From a virus, in the IMG/VR virus record IMGVR_UViG_3300028198_000256, positions 32,001-96,000 of that record: a DNA stretch of 64,000 nt, one strand, 5' to 3'. This document shows positions 28,760 through 42,771 of this stretch, one piece after another (position 1 is the stretch's first letter; the number at the start of each line of letters is the position of its first letter). Both the position numbers and the translations under genes were made by a program. The notes under the pieces are model-generated. The model worked only from the letters and a program-made list of their open reading frames with translations, was not told the DNA's origin and ran no database searches.

Positions 28760-28834
28760 TGGAGCGGACGGGTCGGAATCAAACCGCCTCTTTCTGTATG
28801 GTATACAGATATTCTATCATTAAATTACACCCGC
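28760..28834 (-). tRNA. Atypical tRNA-Gly, anticodon ACC, CCA encoded
   Basis: GCGGGTG/CGTCCGC acceptor, U73 then CCA, anticodon arm TCTGT-ATACCAT-ACAGA; D-loop lacks GG, T-loop TTTGATT, bulged A in the T-stem. Confidence 0.8.
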
Positions 28835-31869: not shown

Positions 31870-32220
31870 TTATAATTTATTTCCTGGATTATGCTCTGAC
31901 GGCAATTCTTCATATTTCTCTTCTGGCATATGATTTCCACCACATCCACCCTCTATATGGTGGTTAGCGCCACAACCAAATTCACCAGTAAATGTATATT
32001 CGCCCAATCTTTGTGTCGTTATGTCCTTAACATTCTTAATATCATTCTTGAGTTTTGCTTCAATAGCAGACATATCTATTTCAGTTTGTTTTACATTATT
32101 TGTAACGTCAACTCCACGTTGAATATACTCTCCAACTAAAGAATTCCAATTAATATCATATGCACCATATACACCAACTAACGTACCTACCGTTAATAAC
32201 ACCTTATTTCGTTTTTTCAT
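31870..32220 (-). CDS. Membrane-anchored hypothetical protein
   Basis: N-terminal TM; GCGANH/GCGGNH repeat. Confidence 0.5.
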   Translation of the reverse strand: MKKRNKVLLTVGTLVGVYGAYDINWNSLVGEYIQRGVDVTNNVKQTEIDMSAIEAKLKNDIKNVKDITTQRLGEYTFTGEFGCGANHHIEGGCGGNHMPEEKYEELPSEHNPGNKL

Positions 32221-34382: not shown

Positions 34383-35336
34383 TCATGATACTAACGCCTT
34401 TAATGATTCACCATTACGAAATCTTCGTATCGTCTCCGATACCAAGTCCTTTACACTTATTACCTTTATCTTTGATGTCAACTCAGAAGTATGTTCTATG
34501 GAATCTGTAATATACAAAGTCCCGATATCAGACTGTTCTATTCGTTCAATAGACTTTCCAGAAAAAACACCATGAACTGCAACACAATCAACCCTCACCG
34601 ATCCAGACAACTTTAATGCCTCTGCAGCACCAACCAATGTTCCCCCACCATCAATCATATCATCTACTATAACACATTTTTTACCTTCAACATCACCAAT
34701 AACATTCATAACTTCAGACATACCCGGCTCTGGTCGACGTTTATCAATAATTGCGATTGGTAAATTTAATTCCTTTGCAAAATACCTTGCACGACCAGAA
34801 CCACCCACATCAGCAGCAACCACAACATCCCAATAAGAAGGAACAATTGCGGCAACAATAGAATCCCTCATAGTTTTTAAAGCTGATATATGTTCACAAA
34901 CAACATTGTTATTAAAAAATGCTTGTGTTTGTAAAGAATGTAAATCCATACAGATTACTGAATTTATACCAGAATAACAGAGCATATTAGCAAACACCTT
35001 ACCAGATATAGGACTTCTATTAGTACGTCTATCTTGTCTAGCATATGCATAATATGGGAATATAACATTAATAACAGATGGATTTGAACGTCTAACTGCA
35101 TCAATAAGTAACATCAATTCCATTATATCATTGTTTCTATTAGAACCTACCCCAGATTTAAATCCAGCTATAATAAAAACTTCCTCTAACCGAATGTTCT
35201 CCTTAATCTCTACATAAATCTCTGAATCAGGAAAATCTCTAATTTTCACCTTGGTCAATCTCATACCAAGATTCTCAGCAACTTGTTTGGCCAACTTTGT
35301 ATTAGACCGTGTTGAAATTATTATAGATTTTTTCAT
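34383..35336 (-). CDS. prs: Ribose-phosphate pyrophosphokinase (PRPP synthetase)
   Basis: FPDSEI, MELMLLIDA, PYYAYARQDR, MDLH, IDKRR, VDDMIDGGGTL. Confidence 0.95.
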   Translation of the reverse strand: MKKSIIISTRSNTKLAKQVAENLGMRLTKVKIRDFPDSEIYVEIKENIRLEEVFIIAGFKSGVGSNRNNDIMELMLLIDAVRRSNPSVINVIFPYYAYARQDRRTNRSPISGKVFANMLCYSGINSVICMDLHSLQTQAFFNNNVVCEHISALKTMRDSIVAAIVPSYWDVVVAADVGGSGRARYFAKELNLPIAIIDKRRPEPGMSEVMNVIGDVEGKKCVIVDDMIDGGGTLVGAAEALKLSGSVRVDCVAVHGVFSGKSIERIEQSDIGTLYITDSIEHTSELTSKIKVISVKDLVSETIRRFRNGESLKALVS

Positions 35337-37063
35337 AAATTATCTTTACATAATGTTTCAATTATATTTTTCATTGCAATAGATTGATCATCTGGGGCAA
35401 TCTCTATATTTAATACATAAGATTGTGACACATCATCTAATGCAGTTTCTAATGCATTCCTGAATTGAGAAGAATCTGATATATACATCCCAACACCACC
35501 ATCCATTAAATCTGTTATTTTATCATATCTCCAATTATGAATATCATTGAACTCACCTTCCATAATTGCCTTTTCAGTAGAATATCCCCTATTATTAAGT
35601 ATAAGAATAACAGTATTCAACTCATTACGAATGTGGGATGAAAATTCAGAACCCGTCATTTGAAAGGCACCATCACCAACAATGACTATTGGTCTTTTAT
35701 GTGGTTTTGCATACTTAACACCAACTGCGGCAGGAACCGAAAATGACATAGATGTATAATATGCCATACATAAAAATTGTCCTTTCCTCATAGGAACATC
35801 AATAATACCAAATAACGATTCACCTATATCTGATATTACTATATGATCCTCACTTATCAATTCACCTATAGTATCAAATACATATTCCAATTTAGTAGGA
35901 TTCGTCATGTCATGTGACTTAAATGACAATTTACTGGTATCTACAATATTAGTCCATCTACTTATAGAATTATCAGATTGAATCTCAGAATCATCTAAAT
36001 ATACCAAAAATGAACGAACCAATTCATAAAAATCCTCAGTTGTGGATTTTAATGTTTTAATATGTTTATTTTGAAACATGATACCATCATCCATATTAAT
36101 AGAAATATCAGCAACAAAATCAAATGATTCAATATCCGTATTAACCATACCAATAGTAACAATACAGTCTGATTTTTTTATCTCATCAATAACTGACGAA
36201 TCAGAAAATAAACCAGAAACACACCCAATAGAATTTCGACTGAACTCTGAAATGGTGGATTTACCAAGCAAAGTTGTAAATATTGGAATATTAAACTTCT
36301 TTGCAAAATTAAGAATATGATCTTCTAATGAATTACGAAATACCTCATGACCAATAATTAAAACCCTATTACTTGCAGATTTAAATTTATTCAAATTATC
36401 ATATGGTAAATTTATAGATTTGCATTCTTTAGAAAATGGAGTATCCTTAACAATGACATTATTAGAATCCTTCACATATGCTGGAAAGATTTTTGATGGT
36501 ACATCATCCCCATATACTGTTTGAAATTTCTTCAAATATTCATCAACTGAACGTACTATATCTTTATTTGAAAATTCAATATAAATTGGTCTAGAATGTT
36601 TTCGCATTTTATTCAATGCCAAATGAATCATAGACATATTAAAAAACATATCTTCAGAATCTAACGAATAAGTATTAGTGGTTATATTCTTGAATATATC
36701 CCTTTGTGTATTTGCATTATTGATTGTGTGATGTCTATTTGGATTTACCAATAAATCATCAGATGATGGTTTACCAACAAGAATAACAACTGGTGACCTT
36801 TCCGCATAGGCACCAGCAACCGAATTCATAATATTCATAGCACCAACTGAATACGTGACACATACCACACCACAACCACGTAATCTACCATATGCATCTG
36901 CGGCATATCCAGCAGAATCTTCTCTACTCACTCCAACATATTCCATATCAGAATGTTCTTCAATTTCACGCATAAAATTTAACGTGTAATCTCCTGGTAT
37001 ACCAAATATATGACCTGCACCATATAACTTTAATTGTTCTATTAAAAAATGTCCTAAATTCAT
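35333..37063 (-). CDS. ThDP-dependent alpha-keto-acid (pyruvate/indolepyruvate) decarboxylase
   Basis: FGIPGDY, AADAYGR, TYSVGA, AGAYAE, HHT, GDGAFQMTG...NNRGY. Confidence 0.9.
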   Translation of the reverse strand: MNLGHFLIEQLKLYGAGHIFGIPGDYTLNFMREIEEHSDMEYVGVSREDSAGYAADAYGRLRGCGVVCVTYSVGAMNIMNSVAGAYAERSPVVILVGKPSSDDLLVNPNRHHTINNANTQRDIFKNITTNTYSLDSEDMFFNMSMIHLALNKMRKHSRPIYIEFSNKDIVRSVDEYLKKFQTVYGDDVPSKIFPAYVKDSNNVIVKDTPFSKECKSINLPYDNLNKFKSASNRVLIIGHEVFRNSLEDHILNFAKKFNIPIFTTLLGKSTISEFSRNSIGCVSGLFSDSSVIDEIKKSDCIVTIGMVNTDIESFDFVADISINMDDGIMFQNKHIKTLKSTTEDFYELVRSFLVYLDDSEIQSDNSISRWTNIVDTSKLSFKSHDMTNPTKLEYVFDTIGELISEDHIVISDIGESLFGIIDVPMRKGQFLCMAYYTSMSFSVPAAVGVKYAKPHKRPIVIVGDGAFQMTGSEFSSHIRNELNTVILILNNRGYSTEKAIMEGEFNDIHNWRYDKITDLMDGGVGMYISDSSQFRNALETALDDVSQSYVLNIEIAPDDQSIAMKNIIETLCKDNL

Positions 37064-37106
37064 ACAACCACCTTTATTTAAAAGTATTACATAATATCTA
37101 ACATCT

Positions 37107-37889
37107 CTATAGTTCTTCTGGATTACCCCTTGTCGATTCTAAATGTTCAGCCCACGCACAACAGTCATGATACCCTGATGATGAATGATCATTAAAAGAA
37201 TCTATTTCAAATTGCAATAATCCACCACACATACCCCATATATATTGTCCAATCAAATACATTCTAGAATATCCAGAAACAACCCTACCATTACAATCAA
37301 AATATTTTAATAATCCAATATGTCTGAATCCAACAAGTTCTAATGGGTGTCGTGTAACTATATCACAATTATTTTTAAATCTATAAAATGTTGGAGTAAA
37401 CGAAGATGCAAAATCAGAATCACCCACTCTAGGCGACCCAAAAGTATATCCTATAGAATCTTTTCCACCAAATCGTGATGAGGCTAAAGTACATAAAGCA
37501 GCTCCCAAACTATGACCTGTAAAATATACATTCCTGTGTTTATCTCCGACTATTGAATAATCTACATAATGTTGAAACAAATCATCATATATCAAGTCTA
37601 ATGCACCCTTAAACCCCCTATGAACACTACCAATACTGTCTGATTCAACCTTTCTAAATTTTATATCTGCCTCAATATCTGACAATTGTGTCGGTTCCGT
37701 CCCCCGAAATACATATATAATATCTTCATCATCCCATAATCCATAACATTGAGTAGACCCATTATTAAAAAACTTAATATCATATTTCTCTGAATATATT
37801 TCTGAGAAATCTGCAACATCCAAATAAGCATTCATAGACAATCCAGAAAAAAACGTTGCATTTTTATAACTAAATTCCCTATTTAACAT
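37107..37889 (-). CDS. Class 3 lipase
   Basis: VFRGTE, VHRGF, TGHSLGAAL, TFGSPRVG, DIV, DH. Confidence 0.9.
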   Translation of the reverse strand: MLNREFSYKNATFFSGLSMNAYLDVADFSEIYSEKYDIKFFNNGSTQCYGLWDDEDIIYVFRGTEPTQLSDIEADIKFRKVESDSIGSVHRGFKGALDLIYDDLFQHYVDYSIVGDKHRNVYFTGHSLGAALCTLASSRFGGKDSIGYTFGSPRVGDSDFASSFTPTFYRFKNNCDIVTRHPLELVGFRHIGLLKYFDCNGRVVSGYSRMYLIGQYIWGMCGGLLQFEIDSFNDHSSSGYHDCCAWAEHLESTRGNPEEL

Positions 37890-37890
37890 A

Positions 37891-38097
37891 TCAATCTCCA
37901 GAACAATTAACTTTTATTGAATTTGGCGCCACAGCCTCACTTACTTGTTCACGAAGGGCAACTCTGCCCATATCACTAATAGAACAATATTGTTCTACTG
38001 TATGATATGCCGCCAATTTTACTGTATCCATCTTAGAACAACCATACAACATGATAATAATTGACATTATCAAACTCAACTTAACTAACCTTTTCAT
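37891..38097 (-). CDS. Small lipoprotein
   Basis: MKRLVKL...LYGC lipobox. Confidence 0.7.
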   Translation of the reverse strand: MKRLVKLSLIMSIIIMLYGCSKMDTVKLAAYHTVEQYCSISDMGRVALREQVSEAVAPNSIKVNCSGD

Positions 38098-38098
38098 A

Positions 38099-38227
38099 TT
38101 ACTCTCCTATTATAATTTTACCTTCTAATGTTTGTGAAGCCGATATTCTTATTGGGGTCATATTAGAACACCCAATAGACGAAATAATAATTAATAATAT
38201 CAAATTCACTTTAACTAACTTTTTCAT
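38099..38227 (-). CDS. Very small lipoprotein with a paralogous signal peptide (not in ORF track)
   Basis: Manual translation MKKLVKVNLILLIIISSIGCSNMTPIRISASQTLEGKIIIGE. Confidence 0.5.
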   Translation of the reverse strand: MKKLVKVNLILLIIISSIGCSNMTPIRISASQTLEGKIIIGE

Positions 38228-38257
38228 ATACCACCCCGCACATATATCTTCTGGTTA

Positions 38258-38288
38258 GAATAATTCCGTCAAATTGGCGGAATTATTC
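38258..38288. terminator. Intergenic hairpin / probable terminator
   Basis: GAATAATTCCGTC-AAATT-GGCGGAATTATTC. Confidence 0.55.
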
Positions 38289-38300
38289 ATAATAAATATA

Positions 38301-38618
38301 TTAATTGAAATTATATCGGTACTCTACCGCTACATTTTCAAGATGTTGATCATTCCCTTCAAATAAATCCCAAGGTCCAGACATTTGTTGTCTATTATAC
38401 ATCATGGTAACTTCATGTGATTTTGAACCAACATAAGCAGTAGTGAATAATCGTAGACCATTAGTATCTTGATCACCACTCCAAAAATTATCTAAGTTAT
38501 CCATATCTTGAGTCCAACGAAAACCAGCATCCTTCATTTTCATTGAAAATGAATCTGCAACAGCCACCGTTGTTGTAAATGCAAATAATACAGTTAATAA
38601 AATTAATACCTTCTTCAT
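38301..38618 (-). CDS. Secreted protein, possible small outer-membrane beta-strand protein
   Basis: Start MKKVLILL (GAGG SD), AVA-D signal cleavage site, C-terminal VEYRYNFN. Confidence 0.6.
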   Translation of the reverse strand: MKKVLILLTVLFAFTTTVAVADSFSMKMKDAGFRWTQDMDNLDNFWSGDQDTNGLRLFTTAYVGSKSHEVTMMYNRQQMSGPWDLFEGNDQHLENVAVEYRYNFN

Positions 38619-38650
38619 ATTTTTTTCCTCTTTGTTGTAAAAATGAAACA

Positions 38651-38680
38651 TAATGTGGGTATTTTCCAACACCCACATTA
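38651..38680 (-). terminator. Hairpin bounding the 3' end of the tmRNA coding piece
   Basis: Perfect 10-bp stem TAATGTGGGT/ACCCACATTA followed by a U-rich tract. Confidence 0.6.
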
Positions 38681-39175
38681 TATATATAAGAGGATTTCTG
38701 TTGCCAAGTATCCCCAAACTCCGCATACTTATATACTAAGCTGCAACCGCAAAATTATCATCTGCATTTATTTTTTTGATTTTTACATCTTTCTTGATGA
38801 ATAGTCCATATACAATATAGTACATTGTCGAATCTGTTCTCCCCCACAAAAATTGTCTAGTCACAACCCAAAAGTCCTGCAGAACTTCATGAACGCCACT
38901 TGCGGCTAAGGATACCCGGGAGTTTGTTGTCCCGTGTTCACATACGTCCATATATACATTGTAGAACCCATCATCGCTGGTTTGGTGCTAAGTTAAATGA
39001 ACCCGTTGGCTCTGGGGGAATTCCCCCTCACCATCTTTCGTACGCTCCATCTATTCTACTAAGTATACCGTGTGTCACACATTCCGTATATATGCATTAT
39101 ACATCTACACTAGACAATTTATGTGGAAGAGGTGGGAATCGCACCCACGTCCAACATACATAAAATATACTTCAA
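38681..39175 (-). ncRNA. ssrA: Circularly permuted (two-piece) tmRNA; tag (A)ADDNFAVAA; outer ends approximate
   Basis: Acceptor piece first: GGAC-GTGGG-TGCGATT-CCCAC-CTCTTCC-A, ending at 39124. Coding piece begins at 38845 GGGGGAG-AACAGATTCGAC (G3.U70). Resume context ATAAAT-GCA; tag ORF 38765-38736. Confidence 0.88.
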
Positions 39176-39179
39176 ACTA

Positions 39180-39482
39180 TTATGCTTTTAACTTTAAATC
39201 TTCCTCCGTTACAATATCTTCATACCCATCATACTCACGAACATAAAACTTTAACCCCTCTGTAACATATGACAATCTCATATTATCAAACTCATATAAA
39301 TTATGAGTTGGTTCTGACATCTCCATCACCTGTTTATGAAATGATTTCTCATCCCCATGCAAAAATTCATAAATTAATTCAGCATCCATTCTAAGTGATT
39401 GGGGTTTAATGGAAAATCCACTACCCCAACCAGCATGTATAAGAACTCCTACTTTACCATCTGCACTATAATATTTGCCCAT
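39180..39482 (-). CDS. Conserved hypothetical phage protein
   Basis: GKVGVL..AGWGSGFS...FYVREYDGYE. Confidence 0.65.
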   Translation of the reverse strand: MGKYYSADGKVGVLIHAGWGSGFSIKPQSLRMDAELIYEFLHGDEKSFHKQVMEMSEPTHNLYEFDNMRLSYVTEGLKFYVREYDGYEDIVTEEDLKLKA

Positions 39483-41463
39483 CTAAATTCTCCACTAATT
39501 GTGCATCTTGAGAATGATATTGTTTAGTGATTTCTTTATCTGTTTCATCTGAATAATGTAATGGACCACCTCTAAATGGAGCAAATCCAGTACCAAAAAT
39601 AATACCAGAATCTATAAGATCAGCAGACTCTACAATACCATCATACAAACATAATTTACACTCTCTAATAATTTTTTCAATTAACCTTGTCGTTATCTCT
39701 ATTTTAGGATCCGCATAAACCGCATCCACGGGTTTACCTTTGTCATATATGTAAAACCCACTACCAGATTTAATACCCAATTTACCCTTGTCTACTAACT
39801 TCTTTAATCTTTTTGGAACAGTAATTCCAAGATCCTCACTTATTATATCCGTAACAAAATAACAAACATCAAGTCCTACAGTATCTGCCAATAATAATGG
39901 ACCCATTGGCATACCAAAATCAGTAAAAGAATTGTCAATTTCTTCTTTACTATATCCCTCATCCAACATATTAATAGCCTCAATAAGTGTAGGCATTAAC
40001 ACACGATTAACTAAAAATCCTGGACTCGATTTGACTTTTAATGGTAACTTATCAATATGTCTACAAAATGACATAGACTTCTCTATAACATCCTCTGATG
40101 TAATATCTGAATATACCACTTCAACCAAAGGCATTTTTGCAACTGGATTAAAGAAGTGTATACCAACTAATCTCTCAGGATTTTTCATTTCACTTGATAA
40201 TACTTCCAACTTGATAGAAGATGTATTAGTGCCCAATATAGCAGTACGTTTCATTTCAGATTCTAATTCACTATATAATTGACGTTTAATATCCGCATTT
40301 TCAACAATAGCTTCAATGACTATATCTGCGGAAGATATACCATATCCATTTTTATCAGGAATCAACCTATCATACACGTCATTGATTAAATAATCCTTTC
40401 CAGAAAATCTTTTTACATAAAATTTATACGATCTTTTCATTGCGGCAGCTATGGTGTTATCATCAATATCTTGTAAAGTCACCTTATATCCCCTTAGAGC
40501 CGCCCACATTGCAATGTCTCCACCCATTACACCAGCACCTATAACGTGGACATGTTTAAGATCTAACTTAGATTTATCACCAGAAGATTTAAGTAAATCC
40601 TGTAACATAAACACTCGTAATAAATTCTTTGCAGTATCTGTCATTGCTAACTTAGAAACCGACTCCGCCTCTGCATTCATAAAATGATGCTCATCATATC
40701 CATATTTTTCCCATATATCAACTAAAGCATATGGAGCAGGATAATGTTGTTTATTTGCCTCTTTCCTTAAATTTCTACGTATCTGCATTGATAATAACTT
40801 TCTACCAATACCAGAATTCAATACAGAATCTAATTTATCTGGTCGTCTAACGGGAGGACACTTTGCAAGTACATCTTCCGCAGATTTAACTAATAAACGT
40901 TCAGGAACTGCATAATCAACTAATCCCATCTTTTTTGCCTGATATACTGATAAAGTACGTCCACTTAACATCATACCCATAGCCTTAATAACACCAAGAA
41001 CTCTAATAGACCTAACAGAACCACCAAATCCAGGATGTATCCCCAACTTAACTTCAGGAAATCCGACTCGGATATTAGGAGAATCTAATATAATTCTATA
41101 ATCACATGATAATGCAAGTTCCAATCCACCACCAAGACACAATCCATTAATTAATGCCAATGTAGGAAATTCCATATCATCAATTAACCACATCACTTCT
41201 TGTCCTTTAGTAATGGCTTCATAAGCATCATCATACTCATGGAAATCCTTAAATTCTGTAACATCAGCACCAGCAATAAACCCAGTTGATTTATCAGAAC
41301 AAATAACCATACCATCAGGATTATCAGATTTAACCTCTAATAATACATCTTTTAATTCCGTTAATACTTCACCAGATAATACATTCATACTACCATAAGA
41401 ATAATCAAAATGTACCCATGCTATATTGTTAGAATATTTTAATTTAAAATGTTTATAATTCAT
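39466..41463 (-). CDS. fadJ: Fatty-acid oxidation multifunctional enzyme (enoyl-CoA hydratase / 3-hydroxyacyl-CoA dehydrogenase)
   Basis: FIAGAD, CLGGGLELALSCDYR, PEVKLGIHPGFGG, GAGVMGGDIA, TNTSS, HFFNPV, GFLVNR, FGTGFAPFRGGP. Confidence 0.93.
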   Translation of the reverse strand: MNYKHFKLKYSNNIAWVHFDYSYGSMNVLSGEVLTELKDVLLEVKSDNPDGMVICSDKSTGFIAGADVTEFKDFHEYDDAYEAITKGQEVMWLIDDMEFPTLALINGLCLGGGLELALSCDYRIILDSPNIRVGFPEVKLGIHPGFGGSVRSIRVLGVIKAMGMMLSGRTLSVYQAKKMGLVDYAVPERLLVKSAEDVLAKCPPVRRPDKLDSVLNSGIGRKLLSMQIRRNLRKEANKQHYPAPYALVDIWEKYGYDEHHFMNAEAESVSKLAMTDTAKNLLRVFMLQDLLKSSGDKSKLDLKHVHVIGAGVMGGDIAMWAALRGYKVTLQDIDDNTIAAAMKRSYKFYVKRFSGKDYLINDVYDRLIPDKNGYGISSADIVIEAIVENADIKRQLYSELESEMKRTAILGTNTSSIKLEVLSSEMKNPERLVGIHFFNPVAKMPLVEVVYSDITSEDVIEKSMSFCRHIDKLPLKVKSSPGFLVNRVLMPTLIEAINMLDEGYSKEEIDNSFTDFGMPMGPLLLADTVGLDVCYFVTDIISEDLGITVPKRLKKLVDKGKLGIKSGSGFYIYDKGKPVDAVYADPKIEITTRLIEKIIRECKLCLYDGIVESADLIDSGIIFGTGFAPFRGGPLHYSDETDKEITKQYHSQDAQLVENLDGQIL

Positions 41464-41466
41464 AAT

Positions 41467-42771
41467 TTATCTCTTTAAATTTTCAACTAATATTGCACCA
41501 CCTTGTCCATGTCCAATACATAAAGATGCAACCCCATAATGTCCACCACTTGATTCTAACGTCTTAATTAAATGATATACTATCCGTGTTCCAGAAGCAC
41601 CTACAGGATGTCCTATACTAATAGAACCACCATGAACATTTAATTTTTCATCAGGTATTAACCCAAATGGTTCATTCAATCCAAACTCAGATAAACAATA
41701 ATCTGCATCATTCATTGCCCTTGTACAACCAATAACTTGTGATGCAAAAGCTTCATTTAATTCCCAACTATCAATATCATCACATCGTAACCCATTTCTC
41801 ATAACAAGAGGAACTATTGACTGAACTGGTCCCAATCCCATCTCTGATGGATCTACTCCAGCCCACTTAGTATCAATAATTTTTGCAATAGCTTTATCAC
41901 GTAACCCATACTTATCCAAGGCATCCTCACTTGCCAACAAAACAAATGAAGCACCATCCGTAATAGGTGAAGAATTACCCGCAGTCACATTACCAAATAT
42001 TTTATCAAAAACTGGTCTTAATTTCCCTAATTTTTCAATAGTGTTCTTGGATCTAACAGATTCATCTTTATTGTAAAAATTCCCATCAGTATCATATATA
42101 GTAACAATCTCATCCTCTAATACATTAGTATTTTGTGAGATAGACGCTTTCATATGACTATCTAATGAATAAGCATCCATATCATTTCTAGATATATTAA
42201 ACTTATATGCCAAATTCTCGGCAGTCTGTCCCATTGATAAATTAATAGTTGGATCTTTTAATGCACGTAATAAACTAATCACTGGAACTAATAACTTAGG
42301 TCTAAACTTAAGTAACACAGACAACTTCTTAGAAAATGTCTTAGCTAATGTAAATTCAGACAACCACATAGTCATATCATCATTAAATAATAATGGTGCC
42401 CTACTCATAGTTTCCGTACCACCAGCAATAATCAAATCAGACTGTCCACAAGATATACTCCTATATGCCGAATCAATTGACTGCAAACCAGAAGCACAAT
42501 TTCGTTGTACCGTATATGCCGGTATATTAACATTAAGTCCTAATCGTAATGCTAACAATTTTGCAATATTACACTCATCGGCGTTGGGGTTCATGCAACC
42601 AACAACCAATTCATCCACATCATCATTACCAATATCATTACGAATCAACATAGGTCTAACCACCTGAATAGCCAAATCCAATGCCTTAAACTTTCCAGGA
42701 CTTCCTTTAGCCTTTAAAAAAGGTGTCCTACTACCATCTACAATATATACATCATTTAACTTATATTTCAT
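41467..42771 (-). CDS. fadI: 3-ketoacyl-CoA thiolase (FadI/FadA)
   Basis: RTPFLKA, QRNCASGLQ, TAGNSSPITDGA, NEAFA, GHPVGASG, LCIGHGQG. Confidence 0.93.
   Translation of the reverse strand: MKYKLNDVYIVDGSRTPFLKAKGSPGKFKALDLAIQVVRPMLIRNDIGNDDVDELVVGCMNPNADECNIAKLLALRLGLNVNIPAYTVQRNCASGLQSIDSAYRSISCGQSDLIIAGGTETMSRAPLLFNDDMTMWLSEFTLAKTFSKKLSVLLKFRPKLLVPVISLLRALKDPTINLSMGQTAENLAYKFNISRNDMDAYSLDSHMKASISQNTNVLEDEIVTIYDTDGNFYNKDESVRSKNTIEKLGKLRPVFDKIFGNVTAGNSSPITDGASFVLLASEDALDKYGLRDKAIAKIIDTKWAGVDPSEMGLGPVQSIVPLVMRNGLRCDDIDSWELNEAFASQVIGCTRAMNDADYCLSEFGLNEPFGLIPDEKLNVHGGSISIGHPVGASGTRIVYHLIKTLESSGGHYGVASLCIGHGQGGAILVENLKR

Follow-up and report, generated by a model that had tools for sequence, protein, structure and literature searches.

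What is the role of a 278-nt folded segment that separates the two pieces of a phage transfer-messenger RNA (tmRNA) gene? The question is raised by a 64,000-nt stretch of viral DNA (positions 32,001 to 96,000 of IMG/VR record IMGVR_UViG_3300028198_000256), which we refer to as the window and in which a permuted tmRNA gene occupies 39181-38736 on the minus strand. The intervening segment of this gene, here called the spacer, lies at 38846-39123 on the same strand, as do all features of the gene given below. Two-piece tmRNAs are known in phages, as in the ssrA gene of the Methylophilales phage Melnitz (Buchholz et al. 2022, PMC9004378), with the spacers regarded so far as disposable linkers, and in the literature searched we found no description of a conserved structured RNA in a tmRNA spacer. 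On balance we favor the view that selection maintains the 278-nt spacer as a structured, non-coding cargo RNA, which is housed in the intervening segment, freed from it, and active in trans. The cargo RNA probably has a function, because it is folded, belongs to no known family, is conserved between very different phages, and is present in ocean RNA samples. It would be a candidate new RNA family with built-in maturation, among the few conserved non-coding RNAs (ncRNAs) of marine T4-like phages.

The permuted tmRNA gene

The Rfam covariance model RF04321 aligned to the gene at 89.9 bits (cut-off 47) over model positions 1-213, with one unaligned insertion of 270-280 nt between the 3' and 5' strands of the acceptor stem. 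This insertion is the intervening segment. The gene was not reported by ARAGORN, and phage tmRNA surveys based on that program probably under-count genes with long spacers.

From the RF04321 alignment and the sequence, the acceptor piece (39124-39181) comprises the 3' strand of P2, a T-arm (GUGGG-UGCGAUU-CCCAC), the acceptor 3' strand CUCUUCC (39131-39125) and the discriminator A (39124). The coding piece (38736-38845), delimited by the same alignment and by translation, starts with G1 at 38845 and the acceptor 5' strand GGGGGAG and continues through P2 and PK1 to the stop codon of the tag. The seven-bp acceptor stem GGGGGAG/CUCUUCC, with the alanine identity pair G3:U70, and the T-arm stem GUGGG/CCCAC are both those of a tmRNA. 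The tag reading frame (38765-38736) runs from GCA to UAG and encodes ADDNFAVAA*, having the Ala resume codon, hydrophobic end and stop expected of a tmRNA. A 3' CCA, which curators of the tmRNA database demand on the acceptor piece (PMC11915505), is not encoded; every cargo-bearing copy reads CUCUUCC-A-CAU. CCA addition would thus have to follow transcription.

Structure of the spacer

The spacer is GC-richer than its surroundings, as a reading made from the sequence alone had noticed: its GC content is 44-46%, and the GC fraction is 0.45-0.46 over 38850-39150 versus 0.29-0.35 in the flanks (about 31% in the region). The spacer was delimited by the Rfam alignment, and its consensus structure was obtained with RNAalifold on seven full-length homologues and assessed by pair counts. 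The predicted fold is closed by a 15-bp stem, which encloses, from 5' to 3', a pair of small hairpins, a central domain, a 3' junction with two hairpins, and a terminal hairpin.

In the closing stem, supported by both RNAalifold and pair counts, the 5' strand CAUAAAUUGUCUAGU (39109-39123) pairs with the 3' strand ACUAGACAAUUUUUG (38847-38861), which doubles as the 5' leader ahead of the RNase P site. The stem measures 12-15 bp, the 15 bp of RNAalifold enclosing a perfect 12-bp core, AAAUUGUCUAGU/ACUAGACAAUUU. The sequence-only reading had described this core as a prolongation of the acceptor helix, and we find the same: the two are joined by A73:U-1, C:G and A:U, giving a coaxial helix of 22 bp (7 bp of acceptor stem, 3 bp and 12 bp) with one U-U mismatch. 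The closing-stem pair at alignment columns 11/273 changes from C-G through U-G to U-A.

The two small 5' hairpins predicted by RNAalifold (39108-39088 and 39081-39071, together 39071-39108) are the least certain part of the fold and have little covariation; the first overlaps an alternative helix, CAUAUAUAC/GUAUAUAUG. In the central domain (38952-39068; RNAalifold and pair counts), stacked GUAUAC/GUAUAU and GUAGAAU/GUUCUAC helices surround a long irregular hairpin (39052-38995) tipped by a GGGGG-AAUU-CCCCC hairpin (39027-39014), with a further small hairpin at 38980-38968. No other part of the spacer is as variable, and four of the five compensatory pairs are found here. In the 3' domain (38882-38949; likewise from RNAalifold and pair counts), GGAC/GUUC and GUGAAC/GUUCAU close a junction with two hairpins, CGGGA-CAACAAAC-UCCCG (38934-38917) and GCC-GCAAGU-GGC (38906-38895). 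The 3' domain is nearly invariant, its loops and joining strands included. The last hairpin in the RNAalifold structure, CAGGACU-UUUG-GGUUGUG (38862-38879), stands ahead of the closing stem. Two short motifs recur in the spacer, CUUAGC twice (38991-38986 and 38911-38906) and GAUGG three times.

Most of the inner helices proposed in the sequence-only reading recur in this seven-homologue structure, namely GUAGAAU/GUUCUAC, GGGGG/CCCCC, UGAAC/GUUCA, CGGGA/UCCCG and GCC/GGC. The remaining one, CAUAUAUAC/GUAUAUAUG, competes with GUAUAC/GUAUAU, and RNAalifold favors the latter, the data being compatible with either.

The pairing exceeds what chance would give. The 85 pairs of the consensus correspond to 592 pair cells, 98.8% of which are canonical versus 35-47% when the partners are slid. 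Changes on both sides were found in five pairs, one of them in the closing stem, a count reached in 12 of 500 shuffles; the double changes occupy ten cells, and no shuffle reached that number. Unpaired columns are variable twice as often as paired ones. The fold belongs to the tmRNA strand, where it has 10-13 G-U pairs and a consensus energy of -69.5 kcal/mol, compared with -48.1 kcal/mol for the complementary strand.

Conservation between two phage lineages

Nine contigs have the gene order of the window: L002, L003, L004, L008, L010, L026, L147, L151 and the record itself. As close relatives they have flanking genes of 91-98% DNA identity, and the acceptor piece has the same sequence in all of them. 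Within this lineage the spacer as a whole is no better conserved than its neighbors, its 3' half being the exception.

The same spacer occurs in a second lineage, represented by the 135-kb contig L150 and by L058/L149 and L146. There the tmRNA gene lies between regA-mazG and hsp20 in the replication module, a different genomic site from the FadB-orf100 neighborhood of the window. The phages themselves are well separated, at 53% amino-acid identity in gp44 and 32% in gp45, and BLAST similarity between the window and the L150 contigs is limited to a 331-nt block at 39154-38825. Along the gene, identity between the two is 47% in the leader and P2 strand, 96.8% in the T-arm and acceptor, 87.8% in the spacer (90.6% in its 3' half), 90% from the acceptor 5' strand to GAUUCGAC, 51.5% in P2 and PK1, 66.7% in the tag and 70% in the 3' tail. 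The L150 tmRNA is intact, scoring 99 bits with RF04321 and having the tag AESNYALAA. The conservation of the spacer is thus near that of the tRNA-like core and far above that of the rest of the tmRNA. This large folded spacer has 88% identity in phages whose core replication proteins are 32-53% identical, and it is recovered from ocean metatranscriptomes as well.

The 35 differences between the window and L150 spacers change 12 pairs, 8 of which are still paired; three pairs are broken, versus 8.9 expected from random placement in stems (P about 2e-4). Homologues from viral metagenomes had been named in the sequence-only reading as a check on its proposal, and those collected show the structured spacer conserved, with its pairing, in two T4-like lineages.

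A contig with features of both lineages was also seen. L148 (374-880) combines a window-type orf100 and acceptor-piece P2 strand with a cargo and coding piece of the L150 type. P2 would be mismatched in this tmRNA, its Rfam score is down to 80 bits, and its coverage is very low. L148 is either a real recombinant with a breakpoint in the T-arm or a low-coverage assembly chimera.

The search for further copies gave few results. BLAST of the 115-kb record found a single copy of the spacer, and the covariance model R1, run over 97 sources (808 kb), returned the window copy and the truncated L058 copy alone. R1 had no match in 151 sampled alphaproteobacterial genomes, a sample that does not imply absence from the group. 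Neither the whole gene nor the coding piece had similar DNA in 50,697 GenBank phage records. Three motif scans of IMG/VR returned the same lineage alone; one of the patterns, whose gap was a base too long, caught only 2 of the known copies.

Comparison with known RNA families and mobile elements

Rfam 15 (4227 models) gave no match to the spacer at E<=10, whether its 278 nt were searched alone or within 701 nt, and none at the gathering thresholds either. The models covered include RNase P, 6S, signal recognition particle (SRP) and Y RNAs, T-box, riboswitches, GOLLD/ROOL/HEARO and the IMES RNAs. The statement of the sequence-only reading that the segment could not be matched to RNase P RNA, 6S, SRP or a self-splicing intron therefore holds at E<=10.

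Group I and group II introns were among the families without a match. For group I there was no match to RF00028, and the helices supported by covariation are fully nested, with paired 5' and 3' ends and no P3-P7 layout. Small self-cleaving ribozymes (hammerhead, twister, hepatitis delta virus-like, hatchet and pistol) were likewise without an Rfam match at E<=10, and the RNA strand does not have the CUGA hammerhead box. The ends of the spacer form a 12-bp perfect terminal inverted repeat, as in a miniature inverted-repeat transposable element (MITE) or insertion sequence (IS), but an RNA stem explains this repeat equally well and has a compensatory change. Unlike mobile DNA of the MITE or IS type, the spacer has one copy in the 115-kb record, no further copy elsewhere in the window or in 96 other loci, and no flanking direct repeat or target-site duplication. 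Visual inspection had suggested likenesses to the sarcin-ricin loop, group II domain V, RNase P CR-I (on the opposite strand only) and the glnA riboswitch, but these are neither conserved nor supported by Rfam. Base pairing between GUAUCC, an invariant junction, and GGAUAC of the tmRNA 3' tail was also rejected; the tail differs in L150 and the cargo does not follow.

Evidence from RNA libraries

Fourteen marine RNA runs from 8 studies contain the stretch. Runs from four studies (X1, X2, X4 and X5) were compared with it as assembled contigs. On the side of the coding piece, contigs end at 38836 (X1), at 38833 followed by adapter sequence (X2), and at 38837 (X4); on the side of the spacer, contigs end at 38855 in both X1 and X4. 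The coding-side stops come from studies P1, P2 and P3, and the stops at 38855 from P1 and P3. The predicted RNase P site (38845/38846) lies between these breaks, some 10 nt from each, at a place where DNA assemblies are continuous. In X2 and X4, parts of the stretch have no contig cover. A spacer-only contig in X4 (38855-39103) has a depth of 11.4 versus 4.7 for the coding piece, and the X1 contig 38855-39222 has a depth of 20.3 versus 5. As evidence of release this pattern is only a hint.

Run X5 also contains a 68-nt contig without the 278-nt spacer, the junction being at 39123, in which the acceptor end ACCA is followed by AU and then by GGGGGAGAACAGUUUCGAC (GGGGGAG). No DNA copy of this insert-less junction was found in IMG/VR. 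It could be an allele without the insert, as suggested by its coding piece, which differs at 2 of 26 positions from that of the insert-bearing contig of the same run, or it could be an RNA-level product.

No back-joined junction, as would come from a circular RNA, was present among the assembled contigs. Circularization by a phage RNA ligase was considered and is unsupported; the record, which is 64% complete, has no Rnl2-family ligase.

Other tmRNA spacers and related systems

The view that intervening segments of permuted tmRNAs are short, from which the sequence-only reading had started, does not hold for every member of this family of phage tmRNAs. A 21-nt word in the T-arm is common to more than 118 viral contigs, and ARAGORN identified permuted tmRNAs in 102 fetched loci. 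The spacers of these 102 related tmRNAs measure 4-242 nt, their length distribution having modes at 28, 61, 68 and 93 nt, and the spacer of the window is the longest seen. Their contents are mutually unrelated, yet all 102 are closed by a stem that prolongs the acceptor helix. Together with the spacer of Melnitz (below), this survey makes the closing stem a trait of the family and the window spacer the largest among diverse cargoes. In L114 (733-942, minus strand), and likewise in L144, a 242-nt spacer with a 19-bp closing stem contains a 68-codon open reading frame (ORF; start MNDKELIELISH) behind a GAGGA ribosome-binding site, so the slot can apparently hold protein genes as well as RNA.

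The closest described system is the Melnitz ssrA gene (MZ577097.1, 45984-46436), whose stem-closed spacer is about 143 nt long. Both genes encode an alpha-type permuted tmRNA in a marine T4-like phage, Melnitz being without smpB and none having been found in the 64%-complete window record, and both have a long spacer whose closing stem prolongs the acceptor helix. The Melnitz spacer is unrelated in sequence to that of the window, with no match by model R1 or BLAST. The CCA is encoded in Melnitz, and a glutamine riboswitch aptamer (RF01739, 52.8 bits; L154:1399-1447, MZ577097.1 46398-46446) begins a few bases past the 3' tail of the Melnitz tmRNA, whereas the window lacks the CCA, had no Rfam match to a riboswitch at the equivalent place, and has a spacer that is 278 nt long and conserved across lineages. 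The Melnitz paper covers the riboswitch and not the spacer (PMC9004378).

The 2025 tmRNA database reports permuted genes with unusual intervening sequences, one containing an intact tRNA-Ala and one a repetitive element (PMC11915505). As in those genes, a second RNA element is lodged in the intervening sequence of the window tmRNA, where the same tRNA-type processing would release it. The database examples are single cases of a known tRNA or repeat, whereas the window cargo is a multi-domain RNA outside known families and is conserved across phage lineages. Group I introns in the T-loop of tmRNA are a further parallel (PMC11915505): an extra structured RNA of ~250-300 nt lies inside a tmRNA gene and does not remain in the mature product, and group I introns abound in this phage group. 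Unlike these introns, the window element is in the spacer and leaves the T-loop intact, matches neither RF00028 nor a group I core, and would not need splicing.

Neighboring RNAs are also defined by tRNA processing in less closely related systems. The stable RNAs species 1 and 2 of phage T4 (RNA C and D) come from the precursor of a tRNA gene cluster that is cut by host tRNA-processing enzymes. The window cargo resembles them in being a small RNA of unassigned role that would be co-transcribed with a tRNA-like RNA in a T4-like phage and released by processing; it has no sequence relation to them, and the T4 RNAs lie between tRNAs rather than inside a tmRNA. The flanking RNase P site and tRNA 3'-end site follow from the anatomy of the tmRNA, and accumulation as a discrete RNA is at most hinted at by the contig breaks near the RNase P site in three studies and by the one spacer-only contig. 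In MALAT1-mascRNA and in the tRNA-miRNA units of herpesviruses, a tRNA-like structure is the processing signal that defines the end of a neighboring functional RNA. Those systems are eukaryotic, and here the tRNA-like element is the functional tmRNA itself, with the cargo between its halves.

Proposed maturation and action of the cargo RNA

With the acceptor piece's 3' end on one side of the spacer and the coding piece's RNase P site on the other, normal processing of the tmRNA must presumably free it. In the pathway that we propose, the whole precursor would be transcribed as a single RNA and cleaved by RNase P at G1 (38845/38846). The 3' end of the acceptor would be freed by an RNase Z-type cut after A73, by RNase III or RNase E acting in the 22-bp coaxial helix, or by exonucleases, and would be finished by the CCA-adding enzyme of the host, which is needed because the CCA is not encoded. 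The cargo would be left as a separate RNA of about 260-278 nt, with its ends guarded by the 12-15 bp stem.

Once freed, the cargo would act in trans while the phage infects its host, and its most likely mode of action is binding to a protein of either. As a binding surface, the best candidates are two invariant loops (CAACAAAC and GCAAGU), together with the junction GUAUCCUUA and the two CUUAGC motifs. The near-invariant tRNA-like arms, with about 30 and about 20 nt of homology, may allow cargoes to be swapped between phages by homologous recombination. Such cassette exchange fits the block-like similarity between the lineages and the mosaic structure of L148, which is possibly a chimera.

The sequence-only reading had proposed that maturation of the tmRNA releases a second ncRNA. 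Its premise is borne out in that a conserved, structured, non-coding RNA lies between the processing sites, with contig breaks near the RNase P site; the stability, exact ends, circularity and trans action of the released RNA are at most inferred. That the tmRNA serves as a processing carrier is a reasonable reading of the same observations.

We put forward a broader idea more tentatively and would not be surprised to see it fail. The spacer of phage two-piece tmRNAs may be a general slot for expression and processing, in which the arms are both processing signals and recombination arms, and the 278-nt RNA may found a new, abundant class of marine phage ncRNAs, released at one copy for each tmRNA made, with host processes such as translation quality control or RNA turnover as targets of its trans action. 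If the slot idea is true, the tmRNA gene would offer a natural scaffold on which bacteria could make a defined RNA with protected ends.

Alternative explanations

Several points weigh against the spacer being a freed, functional cargo RNA. Its single-sequence folding z-score is weak, at -1.64, and the structure was derived from the same sequences that were used for testing it, seven full-length homologues that amount effectively to two lineages. The 88% identity could partly come from a fairly recent transfer of the cassette and not from long-term selection. The scans described above found no homologue outside tmRNA genes, which leaves a free-standing gene function unsupported, and the genes around the tmRNA include no evident partner protein. 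On the RNA side, contigs of X1, X2 and X5 cross the junction of acceptor and spacer, so that release at the 3' side is postulated; assembled contigs give neither ends, strand nor abundance.

The alternative that survives best, although we consider it unlikely, is a cis-acting role, in which the spacer would be a maturation or regulatory element of the pre-tmRNA that holds the halves together, or gates the RNase P site through a protein or ligand switch, and is then degraded. By prolonging the acceptor helix, the closing stem would sequester the RNase P leader and the 3' trailer, but relatives manage with spacers of 4-30 nt, and maturation thus does not need 278 nt. Two mutually exclusive helices compete for GUAUAUAUG, as in switch-type RNAs, and the glutamine riboswitch directly after the Melnitz tmRNA is a precedent for regulatory RNA modules beside a phage tmRNA; even so, neither a riboswitch nor any other Rfam family matches the spacer, and the invariant loops and junctions of the 3' domain are distant from the processing sites. 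Absence of the encoded CCA coincides with presence of the cargo, a point in favor of a cis-acting role; against it, the spacer-only contig of X4, being deeper than the coding piece, is a weak hint of persistence.

A second and more improbable alternative treats the spacer as a mobile or hitch-hiking cassette of a selfish or neutral kind (possibly an intron that has degenerated), spreading between phage tmRNA genes via recombination in the tRNA-like arms and tolerated since the spacer is discarded. The same cargo does occur in diverged tmRNA bodies and at different genomic sites, and the similarity block ends at the tRNA-like arms. Structure has been kept through the 12% divergence of the lineages, however, unlike what would be expected of neutral DNA. 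The L148 mosaic, with its window-type 5' part and L150-type cargo and coding piece, would also fit a spreading cassette, subject to its very low coverage and lower tmRNA score, which may mark a chimera, and the insert-less junction in X5 could be an empty site. The 12-bp terminal inverted repeats are suggestive of mobility, but target-site duplications are lacking, the spacer is single-copy in the 115-kb record, model R1 detected so few copies, and no endonuclease or transposase gene is nearby. As for an intron, tmRNA genes are known hosts of group I introns (PMC11915505), and the nested topology, without a P3-P7 pseudoknot, and the lack of an intron or ribozyme match argue against this origin.

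Coding capacity was examined on both strands. A tmRNA-strand ORF of 71 codons (38736-38951, minus strand) starts inside the spacer, crosses the RNase P site and stays in frame with the tag as far as the tag's stop codon; it is taken as chance, because a 1-nt insertion in L008, L010 and L151 breaks it. The antisense frame at 38900-39163 has 87 codons in the window; with L148 and L150 included, its open length is 87-92 codons. Stop codons and 1-nt indels interrupt both frames in L008, L010 and L151, and all six frames are interrupted in at least some homologues; the spacer is non-coding. That it encodes a small protein is very improbable: small genes do occur in other phage tmRNA spacers and both frames are open in the window, but the antisense frame has no ATG or ribosome-binding site and shifts register between lineages, and substitutions track base-pairing and not codon position.

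The phage and the surroundings of the tmRNA gene

The window is part of a 115-kb IMG/VR virus record. The neighbors of the tmRNA gene (35333-42771, minus strand) encode a thiamine pyrophosphate (TPP) enzyme, a class 3 lipase, a FadB-like hydratase/dehydrogenase and a thiolase. The best relative of the FadB protein in GTDB is just 36% identical. The record also encodes the T4-type clamp loader gp44 and clamp gp45, with about equal identities of 52-55% to cyanomyophages, the OM43 phage Melnitz and the Pelagibacter phage Mosig. Because of these T4-type proteins and the low FadB identity, the record is assigned to an uncultured marine T4-like myophage with metabolic genes. A fragment of a SAR11 chromosome, which had been suspected from the FadB, thiolase and lipase genes, was dropped as an explanation on the same evidence. 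Relatives with FadB identities of 57-80% (L005, L007, L009 and L011) have no tmRNA at this site.

No match to SmpB (PF01668) and no CCA-adding enzyme were found in the 115-kb record, which is 64% complete. By analogy with the proposal for Melnitz, the window tmRNA presumably uses the SmpB of its host.

Downstream of the tag, the 3' tail of the tmRNA (38688-38735) has the alpha-type GGCAACAGAA motif and aligned to alpha_tmRNA at 47.5 bits, slightly below the cut-off of 50. It is followed by an intrinsic-terminator-like hairpin and T-run (38648-38683, minus strand), recognized in the sequence, at the end of the tmRNA transcription unit. Upstream of the gene, a consensus scan gave a weak sigma-70-like promoter match, TTGTCA, 16 nt, TAAAGT (39248-39275, minus strand), which is a possible start of the precursor; the X1 RNA contig extends to 39222 on this side. 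Elsewhere in the window, a borderline tRNA-like gene that ARAGORN did not report (28764-28834, minus strand) scored 29.9 bits with the Rfam tRNA model, against a cut-off of 29.

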